A stretch of 64,000 bases of DNA from a phage: sequence record PX092659.1; one strand, written 5' to 3'. Of the stretch, positions 1,318 to 55,765 are shown piece by piece. Every line of letters begins with the position of its first letter. Positions within the stretch are counted from its first letter, which is position 1. The translations under genes and the position numbers were made by a program. The notes under the pieces are model-generated. The model ran no database searches, was not told where the DNA came from, and worked only from the letters and a program-made list of their open reading frames with translations.

Positions 1318-1488
1318 ATAAGTATAGGATGGGATACTACTCAGTTGGTATCCCATTCCTGCATTTTAAAATCCCCTTTACAAATTCGATACGATTATGT
1401 ATACTATATTCATTGATCGGGAGAACTTCTCCCATAATAGAACATAAACAAGAAAAATTAATGCTCTACATGGGGTGTAGGAGATTCT

Positions 1489-2163
1489 ATGGGTCGACAA
1501 AAGCTAACAATAAAAGATATAAATATTAGATTAGCTGATCGTGGAATCCAAATTGTCGGTGAATATGTAAACCAACGTACAAAAACAGTATTTAAATGCC
1601 AGAGAGCACACGTTTGGGAAGCAACACCACATTCTATACTCCATATGAGGAGAGGTTGTCCACACTGCTCCAATAATACAATATCGTTAGATGAAGTTAG
1701 TAATAGAATATCTAATATAGGGTATACTCTGTTAAGCAGCTATACTAATGCTAAAACAAAACTACATCTACGCTGCAATAATGGGCATGACTGTTTCATT
1801 ACCTTAGATGGATTGACTCAAGGTAAGAGATGTCCTTATTGTTCTCTTAAATGGGAGAATGGCGGATTCCTCTATATCATGTCCTCCTCTAGTGGTACTA
1901 AAGTAGGCATAAGCTTATACCCTGAGAAACGGCTGAATGAAGTTAAAAGAGAATCTGGATTTTCTGACCTATACTTGTTCACCGTGTATCATCTGCCAGA
2001 TAGAGAGACTGCTTTAGATTTAGAAAAGGAAGTTCACAGAGAATATTATAATAAAAACTGTGGGTTTTCTAATTTTACAGGAAGCACGGAATTTTTTAAT
2101 GTTGCTCCTGAGGATATAGTAATCTTTCTAAGTAGCTTTGGATTGGAGGATTATGGCCACTAA
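1489..2163 (+). CDS. zinc-ribbon plus T5orf172/GIY-YIG-like putative homing endonuclease
   Basis: 224 aa; two N-terminal repeats each ending in CPxC (CPHCS, CPYCS); C-terminal LYIMSSSSGTKVGIS...RL...GSTEFF resembles the T5orf172 (GIY-YIG superfamily) domain; SD TAGGAGA 7 nt upstream of ATG; paralogous to 42986..43651 and 54845..55708. Confidence 0.6.
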   Translation: MGRQKLTIKDINIRLADRGIQIVGEYVNQRTKTVFKCQRAHVWEATPHSILHMRRGCPHCSNNTISLDEVSNRISNIGYTLLSSYTNAKTKLHLRCNNGHDCFITLDGLTQGKRCPYCSLKWENGGFLYIMSSSSGTKVGISLYPEKRLNEVKRESGFSDLYLFTVYHLPDRETALDLEKEVHREYYNKNCGFSNFTGSTEFFNVAPEDIVIFLSSFGLEDYGH

Positions 2164-2590
2164 TACTAAGTACAAACGTGATGCCATTTCCATAATGAGA
2201 GATGGTATAAAATCTAGGTATAGTAAGGATGGTTGCTGTGCTATATGTGGTAGTAGTGAAGACCTAGAACTTCATCACTATCATACTATATCTCAGCTAA
2301 TAAAAAAATTTGCTAAAGAACTCCAGCTGGATTTCACTGATGAGAATATCGTCCTTTCAAATAGGGAAGCATTCTACAAGAAATATGAGCATGAGTTAGT
2401 TAGGGACGTGGTAACATTGTGCCAGCACCATCACCAATTATTACATAAGGTTTACACGAAAGAACCTCCTTTATTTTCTGCTAATAAACAGAAAACATGG
2501 GTTCAAAAGCAGAAAGACAAATTACAGAATCCTCAAGAAAAGACACAAGTCAAGACTGAAATAAAATCAGGATTCGCAAGGTTCTTATAA
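2153..2590 (+). CDS. HNH endonuclease (terminase-associated type)
   Basis: CAICGS...ELHHYH...CQHHHQLLH pattern (Cys pair plus His-rich HNH core); likely start is ATG 2153 with SD GGAGGA, track ORF extends to TTG 2138; stop overlaps portal start (TAATG). Confidence 0.72.
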   Translation: MATNTKYKRDAISIMRDGIKSRYSKDGCCAICGSSEDLELHHYHTISQLIKKFAKELQLDFTDENIVLSNREAFYKKYEHELVRDVVTLCQHHHQLLHKVYTKEPPLFSANKQKTWVQKQKDKLQNPQEKTQVKTEIKSGFARFL

Positions 2591-3807: not shown

Positions 3808-4298
3808 TTGATTATAATGGTCTAAAGACCATTTTTGGTGAAAAACTACCAGAACCTCATATCTTCTTTGCTACGGTTGCTGCGCATAAACATGTTCCTA
3901 GCTATGCTTTTCTGCGTAGAGAACTAGGAATTTCATCTGCGCATACTAACCGTAAAGTATGGAAGAAATTTGTAGAGGCTTATGGTAAAGCAATTCCTCC
4001 GGCTCCACCGGCTCCACCATTAACTCTTTCTAAAGATTTAACTGCGAGCATGTCAGTTGAAGAGGGAGCAGCATTAACACTTTCTGTTACTGCAACTGGT
4101 GGTACTGGTCCATATACTTATGCATGGACTAAAGATGGTTCTCCTATTCCGGAAGCTTCAGGAGCTACCTATACTAAGCCTGCAGCAGCTACGGAGGATT
4201 CTGGAGCCTATAAAGTAACTGTAACAGATAGTAAGCAAGTAAGCAAGGACTCTACTACATGTGCTGTGACAGTTAATCCTACTGTTCCTGGAGGCTAA
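3804..4298 (+). CDS. head decoration protein with C-terminal Ig-like domain (pb10-like)
   Basis: 164 aa; PPAPPAPP linker followed by Ig-like fold signature (LTLSVTATGGTGPYTYAWTKDGSPIP...SGAYKVTVTD); size equals T5 pb10. Confidence 0.6.
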   Translation: MIDYNGLKTIFGEKLPEPHIFFATVAAHKHVPSYAFLRRELGISSAHTNRKVWKKFVEAYGKAIPPAPPAPPLTLSKDLTASMSVEEGAALTLSVTATGGTGPYTYAWTKDGSPIPEASGATYTKPAAATEDSGAYKVTVTDSKQVSKDSTTCAVTVNPTVPGG

Positions 4299-4301
4299 TA
4301 A

Positions 4302-42626: not shown

Positions 42627-42657
42627 TTATTTATATCTCTCATTAATTTATATAAAT

Positions 42658-42686
42658 ATTATATAACAAAACTGAGTTGAAAGCAA
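42658..42686 (-). promoter_or_regulatory. T5-type early promoter upstream of ligA
   Basis: minus strand TTGCTT(42686-42681)-17 bp-TATAAT(42663-42658), A/T-rich upstream, ATTTATATAAATTAATGAGAG start region. Confidence 0.65.
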
Positions 42687-42692
42687 ATACAT

Positions 42693-43004
42693 TTATTCTT
42701 TTTCCGCCAGGCGTTTAGCTTCTTTTTCTACTTCTAATAAAACCTCACTATTAGATAATATTTTAGTAAATGCCTTAAATAAATGAGATGTTGTTTCTAG
42801 AGTGTATGGCATACTGAATCCACTTTTTGTTGGAAACCATTCACCTTCTATATCTTGGAGCCAGTACCTAATTCCTAAGTATAGATTCCCCCTAAACTCA
42901 GATACAGTTAGCCTAACCTGTTGGCCATCTTCTCTTTCCCAGATAACTATGGACTGATCATCTACATGTCCAACATAATCCTGATTTACATTATCTCCCG
43001 ACAT
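42693..43004 (-). CDS. putative PC4-like ssDNA-binding protein
   Basis: 103 aa; RLTVSEFRGNLYLGIRYW...WFPTKSGFS pattern resembles PC4/YdbC-like fold; assignment by motif only. Confidence 0.4.
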   Translation of the reverse strand: MSGDNVNQDYVGHVDDQSIVIWEREDGQQVRLTVSEFRGNLYLGIRYWLQDIEGEWFPTKSGFSMPYTLETTSHLFKAFTKILSNSEVLLEVEKEAKRLAEKE

Positions 43005-43651
43005 TTTATTGCTCCCTGACTTAGGAGATATTCCTCTGCCTCCTCTGGTTGAATATTAAAAAACTCAGTAGAACCATCAAATATTGATTCTGTAAATATC
43101 TGTGTAGTACTAAAAAATCTATGAGCTTTATTTTCTAGATTATACGCTGACTCATCATAAGAGTATACTCCATATATACTCAAGTCCTCCAGATTAGAAT
43201 CTTTTTTGATCTCTAAAAGTCTTCTATCTGGACTTTTAGATGTTCCTATTTTTGTGCCTAGTTGTGGGCTATAAAATACGTATAAATAGCTAGTAGATTT
43301 ACACATAGGGCATGATCTACCAGCATTTTTAACTTTATCTACACTACTAGTCCACGTGTGTCCGTGGGTGCACTCAAATATTGCCGGACTTTGGGAATTT
43401 ATATAGGAGGATATAAGTTTTATACCTTTAGTACTTAACTGTTGATTTATGACCTCTACAGTTAGTTTAGCTTTGCCACTACAATAAGGGCAGCCACTAC
43501 CTTTCCGTATATTACTTAAATATCCCTTCCATTGATGACCTTTTGAACACTCAAATATAGCGGGTGTTCTTATATTAGCCCATTCACTCACTATATGAAA
43601 ACCTAGTGGCTCTAACTCTTTATTTATTTGCTCTTCTGTTAATTTTTTCAC
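42986..43651 (-). CDS. zinc-ribbon plus T5orf172/GIY-YIG-like putative homing endonuclease
   Basis: 221 aa; two repeats ending in CPYC/CPMC; C-terminal YLYVFYSPQLGTKIGTSKSPDRRL...GSTEFF; GTG start; paralog of 1489..2163 and 54845..55708. Confidence 0.6.
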   Translation of the reverse strand: MKKLTEEQINKELEPLGFHIVSEWANIRTPAIFECSKGHQWKGYLSNIRKGSGCPYCSGKAKLTVEVINQQLSTKGIKLISSYINSQSPAIFECTHGHTWTSSVDKVKNAGRSCPMCKSTSYLYVFYSPQLGTKIGTSKSPDRRLLEIKKDSNLEDLSIYGVYSYDESAYNLENKAHRFFSTTQIFTESIFDGSTEFFNIQPEEAEEYLLSQGAIKCREIM

Positions 43652-43671
43652 TATAATTTACATATGACAAA

Positions 43672-43700
43672 GGAGAGCCGAAGCTCTCCTTTTCTTTATT
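43672..43700 (+). terminator. intrinsic terminator-like hairpin oriented on + strand within minus-strand gene block
   Basis: GGAGAGC-CGAA-GCTCTCC followed by TTTTCTTTATTATTTTTT on + strand; exact reverse complement of the capsid-gene terminator stem. Confidence 0.5.
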
Positions 43701-43989
43701 ATTTTTTGCCTACTGGCGTAGCTCTATCAAGTTCACTAGACAATGAAGTGACACGTTTCACCTTATTTACAGGAATAAATCGGAAGCTATCATTAGTGCG
43801 ACTAAACACTAGAATTTCGTCATCTTTTGGTTGACGGATACGCTCCTGAGCAAAACGTTTACTTAGGTACTTATCAGTAAAATCCATAGTGCCCTGTAAA
43901 TAGGTAGTGCCCTTTTGACGGAGCTTTTCGTAATGAAGATAAAATTCATTATGAGCTTCACATGCGGAGATAATTTCTTGCTTAGTCAT
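43699..43989 (-). CDS. hypothetical protein
   Basis: 96-aa ORF with ATG start, between two early genes. Confidence 0.4.
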   Translation of the reverse strand: MTKQEIISACEAHNEFYLHYEKLRQKGTTYLQGTMDFTDKYLSKRFAQERIRQPKDDEILVFSRTNDSFRFIPVNKVKRVTSLSSELDRATPVGKK

Positions 43990-44004
43990 TTTTAATCCCC
44001 CTTA

Positions 44005-44472: not shown

Positions 44473-44501
44473 ATTATATCAAGAATTATAGGATTAAGCA
44501 A
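44473..44501 (-). promoter_or_regulatory. T5-type early promoter
   Basis: minus strand TTGCTT(44501-44496)-17 bp-TATAAT(44478-44473). Confidence 0.6.
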
Positions 44502-44518
44502 CTGAAATTTTTAAGTAG

Positions 44519-44794
44519 TTACTCCACTAGGCCAACAGCGAGCATATCATCAATGCTGGCAACCTCCCAATCGTCCGCAATAGCTTCGCATACTGTTAAT
44601 GAAACAACCTCGCTATATGGATAGTTACCGGCTACCCAGGTATGCTGAGTAGCTACATCCGAGTCAGCATCTAAAGTTAGTAACACTAAGCCGTTATTAT
44701 CGTTATCCCAGCTTCTGCGATATAGTGTTTTTACTTCCCCATCTTTAAGTAAATCAGTTAGTTTACTCACGGCGTTTTCCTTTTTCTTTATCAA
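44519..44794 (-). CDS. hypothetical protein
   Basis: Track ORF 91 aa with TTG start; a GTG at 44770 with SD AAGGAAAA overlapping the upstream stop is the more likely start (83 aa). Confidence 0.35.
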   Translation of the reverse strand: MIKKKENAVSKLTDLLKDGEVKTLYRRSWDNDNNGLVLLTLDADSDVATQHTWVAGNYPYSEVVSLTVCEAIADDWEVASIDDMLAVGLVE

Positions 44795-51441: not shown

Positions 51442-52255
51442 ATTTGTTCCCCGGCATATAAGGCCTACCCTCTAGATGAGCTTCTACACGAGCAATAAAA
51501 TCAGGGTCACTGAAGGCATCTACAGCCCCTTTACCCCAGTAAGGGATACCGCGTTCTTCCAACTGGTACATCTCACTACGAGTCATGCCTTGATAGCCAG
51601 GTTCCGCTGCTAGGGCATTATCATAGTAGTTAACAACCATTAGCTTGGCAGCAGTAAGGTTAAGAATAGGAAATAATTCCCAGTAGAAGTTAATTACTTG
51701 GTTAGAGCAACCAACCACAATGATCATATCTTGACTGGTAATACCATCAAAAACATTGTACATTTCTGTATATGCTGGAGCATGCTCACCAAAGAAGATG
51801 ACATTAGGTTTAACCCATTTATAGTCATCTGGGTCAATAGAGTTATACCCAACATCAATAATTCGTTTATTACTACTATTGTAGCTATCAGCTACAACAA
51901 CCTCCTTTAAGTATCCATGAATGTGGAGAATATCATTATGGGGAACACCAGCACGCTCAATAAGGTCATCAACGTTAGTAGTCAAATTTACTACTTGACC
52001 TGGGTATTGTTTATACCACTCACCAATACGAAGATGCGCAAGGTTAGGTTCAACAGTTTTTAGCTCTTCACGACGCTTGTTGTAAAACATATGGGTTTTA
52101 TGATAAAAATTACCACGAAAGGCATGAATATTACATACTTCTTCTAGATCATAATCATCCCACAATGCTTTACCACTAGCAGTATCAGTACGAAAGGCTC
52201 GTACACCACTTTCAACGCTCAAACCCGCACCGCTAATAATAATTAATCTACGCAT
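51428..52255 (-). CDS. Sir2-family (sirtuin-like) NAD-binding protein lacking zinc ribbon
   Basis: 275 aa; sirtuin motifs ISGAGLSVESGVRAFR (GAGxS...G(I/V)xxFR), TTNVDDL (TQNxDxL), catalytic His in LHIHGYL, VIFFGE, IIVVGCS; no CxxC zinc-binding pairs. Confidence 0.65.
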   Translation of the reverse strand: MRRLIIISGAGLSVESGVRAFRTDTASGKALWDDYDLEEVCNIHAFRGNFYHKTHMFYNKRREELKTVEPNLAHLRIGEWYKQYPGQVVNLTTNVDDLIERAGVPHNDILHIHGYLKEVVVADSYNSSNKRIIDVGYNSIDPDDYKWVKPNVIFFGEHAPAYTEMYNVFDGITSQDMIIVVGCSNQVINFYWELFPILNLTAAKLMVVNYYDNALAAEPGYQGMTRSEMYQLEERGIPYWGKGAVDAFSDPDFIARVEAHLEGRPYMPGNKYVHN

Positions 52256-52469
52256 TTTTCACCTGTTCTCTGAAGTTTTGCCCAATACTGTCTAATAGCT
52301 CAGCTAATTCTTTATTGCCTTTCTCCATTAAGGTATTAGCAATAACTTCTAGCATAGTAGCGCAGGATTCAACACCATCCTTATAGCCAGTTTCCCAGTG
52401 CTGCATTAATGCGTTTTCCAAAGCGGCGTTTAAACCCTTATCTGGTAGTATCGGCTTCAAGAATGCCAT
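52248..52469 (-). CDS. hypothetical small protein
   Basis: 73 aa; ATG 52469 with strong SD GAGGAG; overlaps upstream ORF by 32 nt. Confidence 0.4.
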   Translation of the reverse strand: MAFLKPILPDKGLNAALENALMQHWETGYKDGVESCATMLEVIANTLMEKGNKELAELLDSIGQNFREQVKNA

Positions 52470-52641
52470 AAAGTTTCTCCTCTAATTCCATAACACGATT
52501 TTCATAAGAGGCACGCAACTTTTCAATTGCCAGTGCACGCACCGTAACCTCATTAGAATTAATAGCTAATTGGGCCAGATCTTCTGTTTCCATACGTCCG
52601 TTGTAAATTAAGCGATATTTAAGATGTTTTACGTTTTTCAT
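52438..52641 (-). CDS. hypothetical small protein
   Basis: 67-aa ORF with predicted helical C-terminus. Confidence 0.35.
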   Translation of the reverse strand: MKNVKHLKYRLIYNGRMETEDLAQLAINSNEVTVRALAIEKLRASYENRVMELEEKLYGILEADTTR

Positions 52642-52650
52642 TCTTGTTCC

Positions 52651-52932
52651 TTAGTTCTGTACTGTAAATTCATTCTTATCACAGTGAGCATAATAATACC
52701 CATACATACGATAAATCTTCACAGCCTTAGTAGACCCCTTCGATTCTTCGTAATCAATCCAGAGCCACTTGTCTTTACCTACATAATGTACCCGAAACTT
52801 CTTAACTTTCTTATCATTCCATGTTGCAACAACACGACGATAATCAAATCCGCCCAACCAATCCAGAGCTTTACGTTCTTCACTAGGCTCTCCAAGATGG
52901 GAGACATCTACTTTAGGAAGCAACTCGCTCAT
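52651..52932 (-). CDS. hypothetical protein
   Basis: 93 aa; first gene after promoter, SD GAGAGGAG. Confidence 0.45.
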   Translation of the reverse strand: MSELLPKVDVSHLGEPSEERKALDWLGGFDYRRVVATWNDKKVKKFRVHYVGKDKWLWIDYEESKGSTKAVKIYRMYGYYYAHCDKNEFTVQN

Positions 52933-53031: not shown

Positions 53032-54858
53032 TTACTTAAGATTTAAGTGTTTTACTCTACCAAGAACTTCTTTTTGTTTCCCAGAATTGAAAGGCCTACT
53101 GCCAGGAGATCCCAGGTACCCGCAAACCCTACGTGTAACCTCTATTTCTTCAGACCCACAACTCGGACATACAAACCCACGTTCAGAGGCAACAGATTCA
53201 CCCATATACCCACAGTTGAAGCACTCATCAATTGGTATATTAACACCAATATAATGGCTACATTCTAGCCCCTTATCCACCACATACTCAAGAGCTTTGT
53301 GGAACTTTTTCATTTGAGGTAGTTCCACAAATGATATATTACCACCATTAGCTATTTTGGTAAAATGAGCCTCGTACTCAAATTTAGTATCTGGAGCTAC
53401 CTTCTCTCTTACGTCCAAATGGTGACTATTAGTAAGATAGCCTTTGTCTGTTAACCAAGAATACTCTGGGAATCTACGTTCTAGTAATTTATTAAAACGA
53501 TTACATAGAGACTCACTAGGAGTAGCATACAAGCTAAACCCAAGATTAGTCTCATTAGCTTTAACTTCGCAACGATTTTTTAGGTGAGTGAGAACTTCCT
53601 CTGTAAATTCAATACAGTCCCTATGGGTCTGTGGTAAACTAAACATTATTTGGCACATCTCATAGACCCCAATATACCCAAGAGATACAGAGGATCTACC
53701 CTCAAAAATAGGCCATACATATTCTTCCCCTTCTAAACGTGCACCAAACCCACCGTGCATATAAAGAATAGGGGCTTGTTTAGCCTTAACTTTCTTCAGT
53801 CTGTTTAAGAAGAAGTCATGCGCTTCAAAAGCCTCATCCACATATTTGTCTAGAATACCCCAGAAATCTTCAAAAACTCCATCTGCCTCAGCAGCAACCA
53901 TAGGTAGATTGATAGACACAACACCTAAATTATTACGTCCTGCAATTTCTCCAGAGGGGATAGCAGATAAAAAACTACGACAACCCATAGGGGCTTTAAA
54001 ATCACCAGTAACAGCTACAACTCTCTCGTAACTTAAATAGTCTGGATACATACGAGTAGCAGAACACTCAAGTGCTAGCTGTTTTATATCATAGTTAGGA
54101 TCACCTGGGTTTTTATTTAACCCTTCTTTAACTGAGAATACTAGTTTAGGGAAGATAGGGGTTGACTCAGCAGCACCTAAACCTTTAATGCGATTTTGGA
54201 GGATGGCTTTCTGAATCATCCTTTCCTCCCACTCCTGCCCTAATCCAAAGCCAAGCGTAACAAAAGGGGTCTGCCCATTAGAGTTAAATAATGAATTAGT
54301 TTCATACTCTAGAGCTTGGAATGCATCATAACACTCTTTTTCAGTAAGCTCAGTAGCATACACAGCAGCTTTTCTTTCATCCTTGAGCCAACGTAGCCCA
54401 CGACCCAGATGTTTATTGTAAGACTTTCTGACATACGGGGCTAGAACCTCGTCGATACGATCAATAGAGGTGCCACCATACTGAGCACCAGATACTTGGG
54501 CAATAATCTGAGCAGTGATTGCACATGCAGTAGTTATGGATTTAGGAGTTTCAATATTTGCATTACCAATTTTAGTACCATTCTTCAGCATGCCACCAAG
54601 GTCTACTAAGCAACAGTTAGTGTACCCCTGCGCCCTGTAATCCATATCATGAATGTGTATCTTACCTAGATTATGTGCGTCTAATAGATGTTTGGGTAAT
54701 TCCTGCGATACTAAATACTTGTTGATTTCTCCGGCTAATAAGTCTCTTTGAGTATGGAACATCTCACTAGGCTTATTAGCATTATTATGTTGTAAGTCCT
54801 TGTCAGCAGTTAGAGTGAGCAGGCCTTTGCAATTCTCAATTAATTCATTCTCTGTCAT
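53032..54858 (-). CDS. nrdD: anaerobic ribonucleoside-triphosphate reductase
   Basis: 608 aa; C-terminal glycyl-radical motif RVCGYLGSP and zinc site CFNCGY...CPSCGS; catalytic Cys region. Confidence 0.9.
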   Translation of the reverse strand: MTENELIENCKGLLTLTADKDLQHNNANKPSEMFHTQRDLLAGEINKYLVSQELPKHLLDAHNLGKIHIHDMDYRAQGYTNCCLVDLGGMLKNGTKIGNANIETPKSITTACAITAQIIAQVSGAQYGGTSIDRIDEVLAPYVRKSYNKHLGRGLRWLKDERKAAVYATELTEKECYDAFQALEYETNSLFNSNGQTPFVTLGFGLGQEWEERMIQKAILQNRIKGLGAAESTPIFPKLVFSVKEGLNKNPGDPNYDIKQLALECSATRMYPDYLSYERVVAVTGDFKAPMGCRSFLSAIPSGEIAGRNNLGVVSINLPMVAAEADGVFEDFWGILDKYVDEAFEAHDFFLNRLKKVKAKQAPILYMHGGFGARLEGEEYVWPIFEGRSSVSLGYIGVYEMCQIMFSLPQTHRDCIEFTEEVLTHLKNRCEVKANETNLGFSLYATPSESLCNRFNKLLERRFPEYSWLTDKGYLTNSHHLDVREKVAPDTKFEYEAHFTKIANGGNISFVELPQMKKFHKALEYVVDKGLECSHYIGVNIPIDECFNCGYMGESVASERGFVCPSCGSEEIEVTRRVCGYLGSPGSRPFNSGKQKEVLGRVKHLNLK

Positions 54859-55708
54859 TGATTATTTCCTCGATAAACTTTATAGCTACTTTTGGTTCAA
54901 TATTGAAGAATTCCGTAGCGCCATCAAAATCTTTGTAATGGCAATTCTGTTCTTTAAAGTAGTTATGAGCTAATTTTTCGATTCGAACTGCACTACTATA
55001 TTCGCCAATTTCAAATACTTTAAGTATTTCCAAATCAATAAGGTGGCCACTAGATTTAATATGTAGAAGCCTACGCTCTGGATTGTTAGACCTACCTATT
55101 TTAACTCCATGTGTGGGGCTATGCATAACATATATCTTAGTACTTTCTAAATCTCTATAGCTACAGTAAGGACAACCGTTCCCTCTTAATACAGATCCTG
55201 GAGTAGCTCCCCACCTATGCCCTGCGCCACAGAGAAAGGTAGTCTTAGTATTCGCATTAACATATTCACCTACTATTCTGATATTTCTGGCAGTAAGACG
55301 ATCATTTATAACACTAATACTAAGTTTCTGCTTATTAATAGCACAAGACGGACAGCCACTCCCCCTATTAATTATGCTATTAAGCGTAGTAGTCCACTCA
55401 TGACCACAAATACACCTAAATTTAGTGTTTATATCAACACTATTTTTATATCCCCCCAACAATGTAATACCTCTGTCCTGTAATACAGAACTAATTTTAT
55501 CAATATCTAGTTTACGGCTATTAGTAGAGCAAGTAGGACAATTGGTCTTTCCATTCCTAATAGCGTCAAATTTAGCTGTCCATTGATGGCCATATTCACA
55601 CTGATACGTATGCCTATACCTAGAATTTTGATACGGCTTATCCACCATAGTAAAACCACGCTCGGCTAGGCATTTATCTACTTCTTCTTGGGTTAATTTT
55701 TTCGGCAT
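54845..55708 (-). CDS. zinc-ribbon plus T5orf172/GIY-YIG-like putative homing endonuclease
   Basis: approx 288 aa from ATG 55708 (track extends to TTG 55765); four repeats ending CPTC/CPSC/CPYC; C-terminal IYVMHSPTHGVKIGRSNNPERRL...GATEFF; consensus promoter upstream. Confidence 0.6.
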   Translation of the reverse strand: MPKKLTQEEVDKCLAERGFTMVDKPYQNSRYRHTYQCEYGHQWTAKFDAIRNGKTNCPTCSTNSRKLDIDKISSVLQDRGITLLGGYKNSVDINTKFRCICGHEWTTTLNSIINRGSGCPSCAINKQKLSISVINDRLTARNIRIVGEYVNANTKTTFLCGAGHRWGATPGSVLRGNGCPYCSYRDLESTKIYVMHSPTHGVKIGRSNNPERRLLHIKSSGHLIDLEILKVFEIGEYSSAVRIEKLAHNYFKEQNCHYKDFDGATEFFNIEPKVAIKFIEEIINDRE

Positions 55709-55736: not shown

Positions 55737-55765
55737 ATTATACTAAACATTATCCACCATGTCAA
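55737..55765 (-). promoter_or_regulatory. consensus sigma70 promoter
   Basis: minus strand TTGACA(55765-55760)-17 bp-TATAAT(55742-55737), then SD GGAGAAGAG and ATG 55708. Confidence 0.7.

Follow-up and report, generated by a model that had tools for sequence, protein, structure and literature searches.

The window, which is the whole stretch of 64,000 nucleotides of sequence record PX092659.1 that was analysed, is assigned by its nucleotide sequence to a T5-like phage, Tequintavirus; in the region running from terL through the major head gene it shares 94-97% identity with T5_ev219, IrisVonRoten and T5. It contains three open reading frames, referred to here as g1, g2 and g3 (Table 1), all of which are present where the original prediction had placed them. 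They were proposed to constitute a single family, and this is borne out by comparison of their products, which are paralogs with pairwise identities of 32-35% and tblastn E values of 1e-36 to 1e-40. A search across the 64-kb window for a fourth family copy or remnant found none. RefSeq records label genes of this family variously as 'endonuclease', 'homing endonuclease' and 'GIY-YIG nuclease family protein'.

Each of the three genes has a promoter or 5' leader on one side and the start of a conserved gene on the other. The proposal that they mark boundaries between genome modules stands for g3, which is at the nrdD/phoH boundary, upstream of nrdD and divergent from phoH, but is correct on only one side for the other two. 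The first was thought to separate terminase and portal genes, and does adjoin terL, although its other neighbour is an HNH 'sciA' nickase gene with portal following it; the second was placed between ligase and PC4-like genes, and does adjoin the PC4-like gene, with a T5.114-like ORF on its other side and ligA one gene further. At all three sites the stop codon overlaps the start codon of the next gene, and the 3' end of each of the three therefore bears the ribosome-binding site of the gene downstream.

Table 1. Features at the three sites, in window coordinates. HEG, homing endonuclease gene.
Feature	Position	Strand	Remarks
terL terminator-like hairpin	1327..1358	+	common to occupied and empty alleles
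Promoter-like element TTTACA-17-TATACT	1377..1405	+	common to all alleles
g1	1489..2163	+	probable free-standing T5orf172 HEG, 224 aa, ortholog of T5.154
g1 Zn fingers 1-2	1489-1848	+	residues 1-120
g1 GIY-YIG-like T5orf172 domain	1849-2160	+	residues 121-224
sciA-like HNH nicking endonuclease gene	2153..2590	+	ATG overlaps g1 stop, 11 nt
PC4-like transcriptional regulator gene	42693..43004	-	start overlaps g2 stop, 19 nt
g2	42986..43651	-	probable T5orf172 HEG, 221 aa, GTG start
g2 nuclease domain	42989-43297	-	
g2 Zn fingers	43298-43651	-	
Hairpin after T5.114-like ORF	43669-43692		corresponds to terminator annotated in T5
T5.114-like ORF	43699..43989	-	upstream of g2, linked divergent allele
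nrdD	53032..54858	-	start overlaps g3 stop, 14 nt; g3-linked allele spans whole gene
g3	54845..55708	-	probable T5orf172 HEG, 287 aa, three Zn fingers
g3 nuclease domain	54848-55153	-	
g3 Zn fingers (three)	55154-55708	-	
Sigma-70 promoter TTGACA-17-TATAAT	55737..55765	-	perfect consensus, just upstream of g3

The three proteins are composed of N-terminal repeats of ~58 residues each, followed by a C-terminal portion of ~100 residues corresponding to T5orf172/MUG113. The repeats had been described as tandem zinc ribbons ending CPxC, and each does close in this way, with a C-x3-H-x14-15-C-P-x-C pattern providing a CHCC zinc-ligand set whose positions are invariant or almost so among the homologs in a 33-sequence alignment; their number, given as 2 to 4, is 2, 2 and 3 in g1, g2 and g3 respectively. 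The core motif YV-x5-G-x-KIG is retained with its spacing amended to Y[IV]-x5-6-G-x-K[IV]G, and g1, which ends TGSTEFF, departs from the proposed ending (G/D)G(S/A)TEFF. Longer arrays (400-500 aa) of the same zinc-finger repeats, lacking T5orf172, are found in many bacterial and phage proteins, and because some of these carry PF18741 or PF04480 instead, the finger array appears to be a widely shuffled module.

Profile (HMM) searches, named at the outset as a check on the family assignment, were positive, with all of the Pfam matches over their gathering scores. For g1, g2 and g3 respectively the scores are 36.0, 26.9 and 41.0 bits against T5orf172 (PF10544; cutoff 20), 36.1, 40.0 and 44.1 bits against MUG113 (PF13455; cutoff 22.3), 32.1, 39.8 and 55.2 bits against DUF4379 (PF14311; cutoff 24.5, in 2, 2 and 3 stretches), and 35.1, 34.0 and 43.2 bits against CapR (PF21817; cutoff 24.2). 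All three also match PHROG 681 'endonuclease' with E values of 1e-49 to 1e-63. PHROG 559 'HNH endonuclease' is matched by the finger region on its own, and the same DNA-binding array is thus joined to other nuclease domains in phages. Canonical GIY-YIG (PF01541) was not matched by any of the three even at E<=1 in the Pfam search; g1-g3 belong to the T5orf172 family and the GIY-YIG superfamily but fall outside the canonical PF01541 family, and their tie to that family, of the I-TevI/Seg type, is at the superfamily (fold) level only. No NCBIfam model fits, the single zinc-ribbon match being sub-threshold (25 bits against a cutoff of 84), and a phmmer search of g3 against PDB sequences returned marginal matches only, the best being the DUF4379 protein mt-SAF33 (E 0.055). 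PADLOC gave PDC-S57 matches confined to the nuclease domain (E 3.5e-6 to 5e-3), and a reading of g1-g3 as defence genes was dropped because these matches are weak.

The fold of g1 was modelled with AlphaFold2 using the 33-sequence alignment as input (mean pLDDT 87); the alignment was built from a profile search, and a protein search with g1 alone, which uses a word prefilter, gave 8 matches. The model has two small beta-rich finger modules followed by a C-terminal beta-beta-alpha-beta-alpha domain, whose modelled fold is that of the GIY-YIG nucleases. Fold comparisons gave the highest scores with At-HIGLE / SLX1 (7.8, 7.2 and 6.7), followed by the AtGRXS16 N-domain (4.8), the I-TevI catalytic domain (4.7), PD-T4-3 (4.6), the UvrC N-domain (4.0), Eco29kI (3.9) and T4 EndoII (3.7). 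Residues Y129, K138, G140, E179 and E201 (g1 numbering) are invariant in the 33 homologs, R148 is nearly so (at least 90%), and the second motif is K138-[IV]-G140 rather than Y-I-G in all 33. Y129 is the Tyr of the GIY motif, K-I-G is a variant of YIG, and R148 and E201 are the predicted catalytic Arg and Glu.

At the first site, the insertion point of g1 lies between the promoter-like element and the sciA ribosome-binding site, with position 1413 as the last base in common with empty alleles and the g1 cassette beginning at 1414; in the empty alleles the promoter-like element leads straight into the sciA ribosome-binding site. The name sciA (nicking site-specific endonuclease) is that used by several records for the HNH gene after g1. 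Over its first ~360 nt (to about 2500), identity to the window is 92-97% in genomes containing g1 and 68-80% in those lacking it, and from 2501 on ~98% identity is regained in both groups alike. There are two allele classes of sciA, differing solely in the first ~360 nt, and the window-type allele was observed only beside g1 or a g1 remnant with the exception of SP01; SP01 has a third sciA variant (85% identity).

In phage T5, the ortholog of g1 is T5.154 (YP_006982.1; 'endonuclease', also 'YomD-like'), which has 98% amino acid identity and is likewise flanked by terL and T5.153/sciA. It is annotated as a 277 aa protein, 53 residues longer than g1, from an ATG that is inside the terL terminator hairpin and also upstream of the promoter-like element (T5 1329-2162; window 1329-1529). 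The corresponding ATG at 1329 was rejected as a start for g1, being in the hairpin and out of frame here. Because a 1-nt difference in a run of G residues (GGGG in the window vs GGG in T5, at 1471-1474) throws the T5-style extension out of frame, the ATG at 1489, which is conserved in the family and preceded by the ribosome-binding site TAGGAG, is likely the real start of g1; the RefSeq start of T5.154 is probably a longest-ORF artefact.

Both neighbours of g2 are divergent in genomes that lack it. For the PC4-like gene, identity is 99-100% in genomes containing g2 vs about 71-75% in those without, and for the T5.114-like ORF it is 86-95% vs 67-71%; further out, ligA and D3 are ~95% identical in the two groups alike. 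T5 has a terminator and a short leader at the position of g2 and nothing more. There is no obvious Shine-Dalgarno sequence for the GTG start of g2, and its nearest full-length allele (92%) is in a short record, OR850783.1, 'Salmonella phage S.Inf 5-2'. The D3-ligA gap (window 42627-44004) has two classes among genomes lacking g2, of about 779 and about 958-971 bp, the longer class having an extra ~180-190 bp. In DT571/2, which also lacks g2, a window-like part of the T5.114-like ORF (84-95%, 43801-43989) is fused to a T5-like PC4 allele, and from this junction DT571/2 reads as a recombinant with its breakpoint exactly at the g2 insertion point.

At the third site, divergence extends through the entire nrdD gene, which is 91-97% identical in genomes containing g3 vs about 50-74% in those with an empty site, and phoH is about 96-98% identical in both groups alike. 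The nrdD genes of Tequintaviruses comprise two deeply divergent alleles over 1.8 kb, with >90% identity sharply regained on both sides, and in the genomes sampled the window-type allele always has upstream of it g3, a relative of the type found in NR01, or a g3 remnant. The consensus promoter of g3 falls in the segment missing from empty alleles. A longer ORF with a TTG start (to 55765) was considered for g3 and rejected, its TTG belonging to the -35 box of the promoter; the ATG at 55708 is taken as the correct start. In phage H8 (AC171169.12 39806-40670) the g3 ortholog is 865 nt long vs 864 nt here, and the 1-nt indel means either that the gene is a frameshifted pseudogene or that this old record has a sequencing error.

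Sequences flanking the three sites are present in about 450-530 phage records. Counting records, which include GenBank/RefSeq duplicates, g1 is full-length in 74, g2 in 13 and g3 in 27, and empty junctions are present in 344 of 448 records at the first site, 425 of 475 at the second and 368 records at the third. The original prediction that g1-g3 are free-standing homing endonuclease genes (HEGs) had called for this comparison of insertion sites, and at each of the three most alleles are empty; none of the genes is thus a fixed feature of its position in all relatives. A second sample of 28 genomes from IMG/VR has 9 occupied, 2 remnant and 17 empty alleles at the first site, g2 in 3 of 28 scored loci (with DT571/2 counted as lacking it), and g3 in 6 with 18 empty at the third. 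Among these 28 genomes g1, g2 and g3 are present or absent in almost all possible combinations, and the three genes therefore assort independently. Simple clade-specific inheritance was rejected on this basis and because the outer flanks are equally window-like in genomes with and without the HEGs. Among the records, OR848653.1, OR846838.1, OR847562.1, OR849466.1 and OR847187.1, all short and named 'Listeria phage LM 4-...', are 94-100% identical T5-like fragments, and these are probably contamination or misassignment.

The third site is also occupied by genes other than g3. AKFV33 and one other phage have a different, two-finger family member associated with the other nrdD allele, NR01 has a further family member, and one genome has a 163-aa HNH_3 + AP2 gene on the opposite strand (L043 3332-3823). 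Different classes of HEG are thus found at a single nrdD-phoH intergenic point, and on both nrdD alleles. Remnants are present as well. In DT571/2, Gostya9 and one metagenomic phage (L029) the first 145 nt and last 66 nt of g1 are kept, with an unrelated AT-rich 146 bp in place of the interior, and in DT571/2 the start is mutated from ATG to ACG. One of the 28 IMG/VR genomes (L060) has a remnant at the third site, and HildyBeyeler-type phages retain the last 186 nt of g3. The remnants of g1 and g3 alike keep the 3' end.

We conclude that g1-g3 are very probably three free-standing HEGs in Tequintavirus, of the T5orf172 branch of the GIY-YIG superfamily, and for these we infer the steps of DNA binding, target location, cleavage and homing as follows. 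The 2-3 treble-clef zinc fingers at the N-terminus (CapR/DUF4379/DUF723 type, arranged as 'beads on a string') would read a long DNA target in the HEG-less allele, situated at the insertion point, close to it, or within the 5' portion of the downstream gene, and the C-terminal GIY-YIG-like domain (Tyr129, Lys138, Arg148 and Glu201 in g1) would cut or nick the DNA. During a mixed infection, the HEG-bearing genome would serve as template for mending the broken HEG-less one, and the repair would copy both the HEG and the adjacent divergent allele (the 5' part of sciA, the PC4-like gene plus the T5.114-like ORF, or nrdD), which would itself be without the target. A target sequence was sought by comparing occupied and empty alleles, and none was identified. 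Because its last codons hold the ribosome-binding site and ATG of the downstream gene, the HEG would be expressed with its host gene and would be hard to delete cleanly, which would account for the retention of the 3' end in remnants.

Intact copies of the HEGs are under purifying selection in both the nuclease and finger domains, with dN/dS values of 0.08-0.22; those of portal, ligA, nrdD and phoH are 0.02-0.05. Synonymous divergence of the HEGs disagrees with that of their neighbours, and in both directions: for g2 dS is 0.5-0.8 vs 0.02-0.03 for the adjoining PC4-like gene, and for g1 compared with AKFV33 it is 0.014 while that of portal is 0.10. This discordance points to separate histories with breakpoints at the HEG edges. 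The linked divergent alleles of the neighbours are sharply bounded (about 50-80% identity vs 95-99% in the outer flanks), and the divergence breakpoints coincide with the edges of the HEGs. The window also has low-identity blocks without a HEG of this family, at 4000-4300 (the C-terminal part of the decoration protein gene), 44500-44700 (ORF 44519-44794) and 52200-52900 (small ORFs downstream of nrdD).

A discordant history of HEGs and flanks is also compatible with passive recombination, in which accessory nuclease-like or DNA-binding ORFs are shuffled as mosaic modules by ordinary exchange without promoting their own movement by cleavage. Ordinary homologous recombination could produce both linked divergent flanks and a sporadic distribution; the divergence of the whole of nrdD (1.8 kb) and of both g2 flanks resembles module exchange, and variable blocks without HEGs, such as 44500-44700 and 52200-52900, show that such variation exists in the window. 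We nonetheless consider this explanation improbable, given that the catalytic residues are invariant and the nuclease domain has a dN/dS of about 0.05-0.22, that the breakpoints match the HEG edges, that different HEG classes recur at one exact intergenic point on both nrdD alleles, and that the related protein Odn is a proven nuclease.

Odn (Gp88), a T5orf172 protein of phage ICP1, cuts DNA in vitro, and the substitution E180A abolishes cutting (PMC8263062). Its nuclease domain is of the same type as those of g1-g3, with its essential Glu equivalent to E201 of g1, whereas its DNA-binding domain is RepA_N-like and not composed of zinc fingers, and it acts against a satellite origin and not as a homing element. 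By analogy to Odn, g1-g3 may cleave DNA in a metal-dependent manner. The deployment of a T5orf172 nuclease against a satellite would also suit a use of g1-g3 chiefly as weapons between genomes and less for their own spread, overlapping with homing, which exclude the markers of co-infecting T5-like phages or destroy satellites or plasmids as Odn does; the linked alleles of essential genes would then be immune to cleavage, and the weak PDC-S57 match is to the nuclease domain. That match is marginal, however, and involves the nuclease domain only, no defence or anti-defence genes were seen in the surroundings, and the distribution and remnant alleles are those of selfish HEGs, so that we regard a role of this kind as quite improbable.

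PLE CapR has in common with g1-g3 the zinc-finger DNA-binding domain (PF21817), whose cysteines are needed for DNA binding by CapR (PMC8096241), but it is a stand-alone repressor without a nuclease domain, and its ligand pattern is CxxC...CxC vs C-x3-H...C-P-x-C in g1-g3. Domestication of g1-g3 as regulators in the style of CapR or of the I-TevI autorepressor, with fingers that bind the promoter or leader and tune sciA, the PC4-like gene and nrdD while the nuclease is vestigial, would fit their location directly between promoter or leader and downstream gene and their homology to CapR, a repressor from this HEG family, but is the least credible of the alternatives, since CapR is a finger domain only, the T5orf172 domain here is full, with invariant Tyr, Arg and Glu and under purifying selection, and most relatives lack the genes, which therefore have no essential regulatory role. 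Conservation of and selection on the catalytic domain, the absence of the genes from most relatives and the re-occupation of one site thus disfavour regulators and passive modules alike.

As free-standing HEGs, g1-g3 would act in the manner of the T4 Seg proteins and I-TevI but differ from them in several respects. The domain order is reversed, with the nuclease C-terminal in g1-g3; the second motif is KIG and not YIG, and PF01541 is unmatched; and g1-g3 are predicted to bind DNA through the zinc-finger array instead of NUMOD/HTH modules. Their closest counterparts are those described by Barth, Dunham & Seed (2023), who, in the portions of that study available to us, report T5orf172 HEGs with repeated CapR/DUF723/DUF4379 zinc fingers that are enriched in T5-like phages, are oftenest beside terminase and ribonucleotide reductase genes, show variable presence, decay and turnover at a site, and lie at genetic-exchange boundaries, and whose homing is described as not yet experimentally verified (PMC10448857). 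The HEGs of ICP1 and of T5-like, Plateaulake-like and VpaJT-like phages share with g1-g3 the same architecture, neighbourhoods, variable presence, decay and turnover, and from those portions there is no categorical difference between g1-g3 and that class. Published work thus already covers the class, including its architecture, T5-like enrichment and neighbourhoods, and genes of the g1-g3 type are already listed as endonucleases in RefSeq. The mapping of the sites to the base, the linked alleles of sciA, the PC4-like gene and nrdD, and the start codon overlaps may go beyond the description in the available portions, and are refinements of a known picture.

An extension of the homing interpretation, which we advance only tentatively and think rather unlikely, is that each HEG is locked to the divergent allele of its neighbour (sciA, the PC4-like gene or nrdD), since its final codons provide the ribosome-binding site and start codon of that neighbour, and that the pair acts as a gene-drive unit that spreads among Tequintaviruses at the expense of other alleles of conserved and perhaps essential genes. 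Losing the HEG cleanly may then be disfavoured, with decay proceeding by internal deletion that spares the 3' end. If true, this would extend the idea of the 'HEG island' to single-gene cargo with built-in retention.

The three HEGs help to explain local mosaicism among the T5-like phages, which are used widely as biocontrol and therapy candidates, and flag likely boundaries of recombination near terL/sciA, in the ligase region and near nrdD. Characterisation of the nucleases could turn their multi-finger DNA-binding arrays into programmable reagents for long targets, and an experiment proving for the first time that a T5orf172 HEG homes would close a recognised gap.
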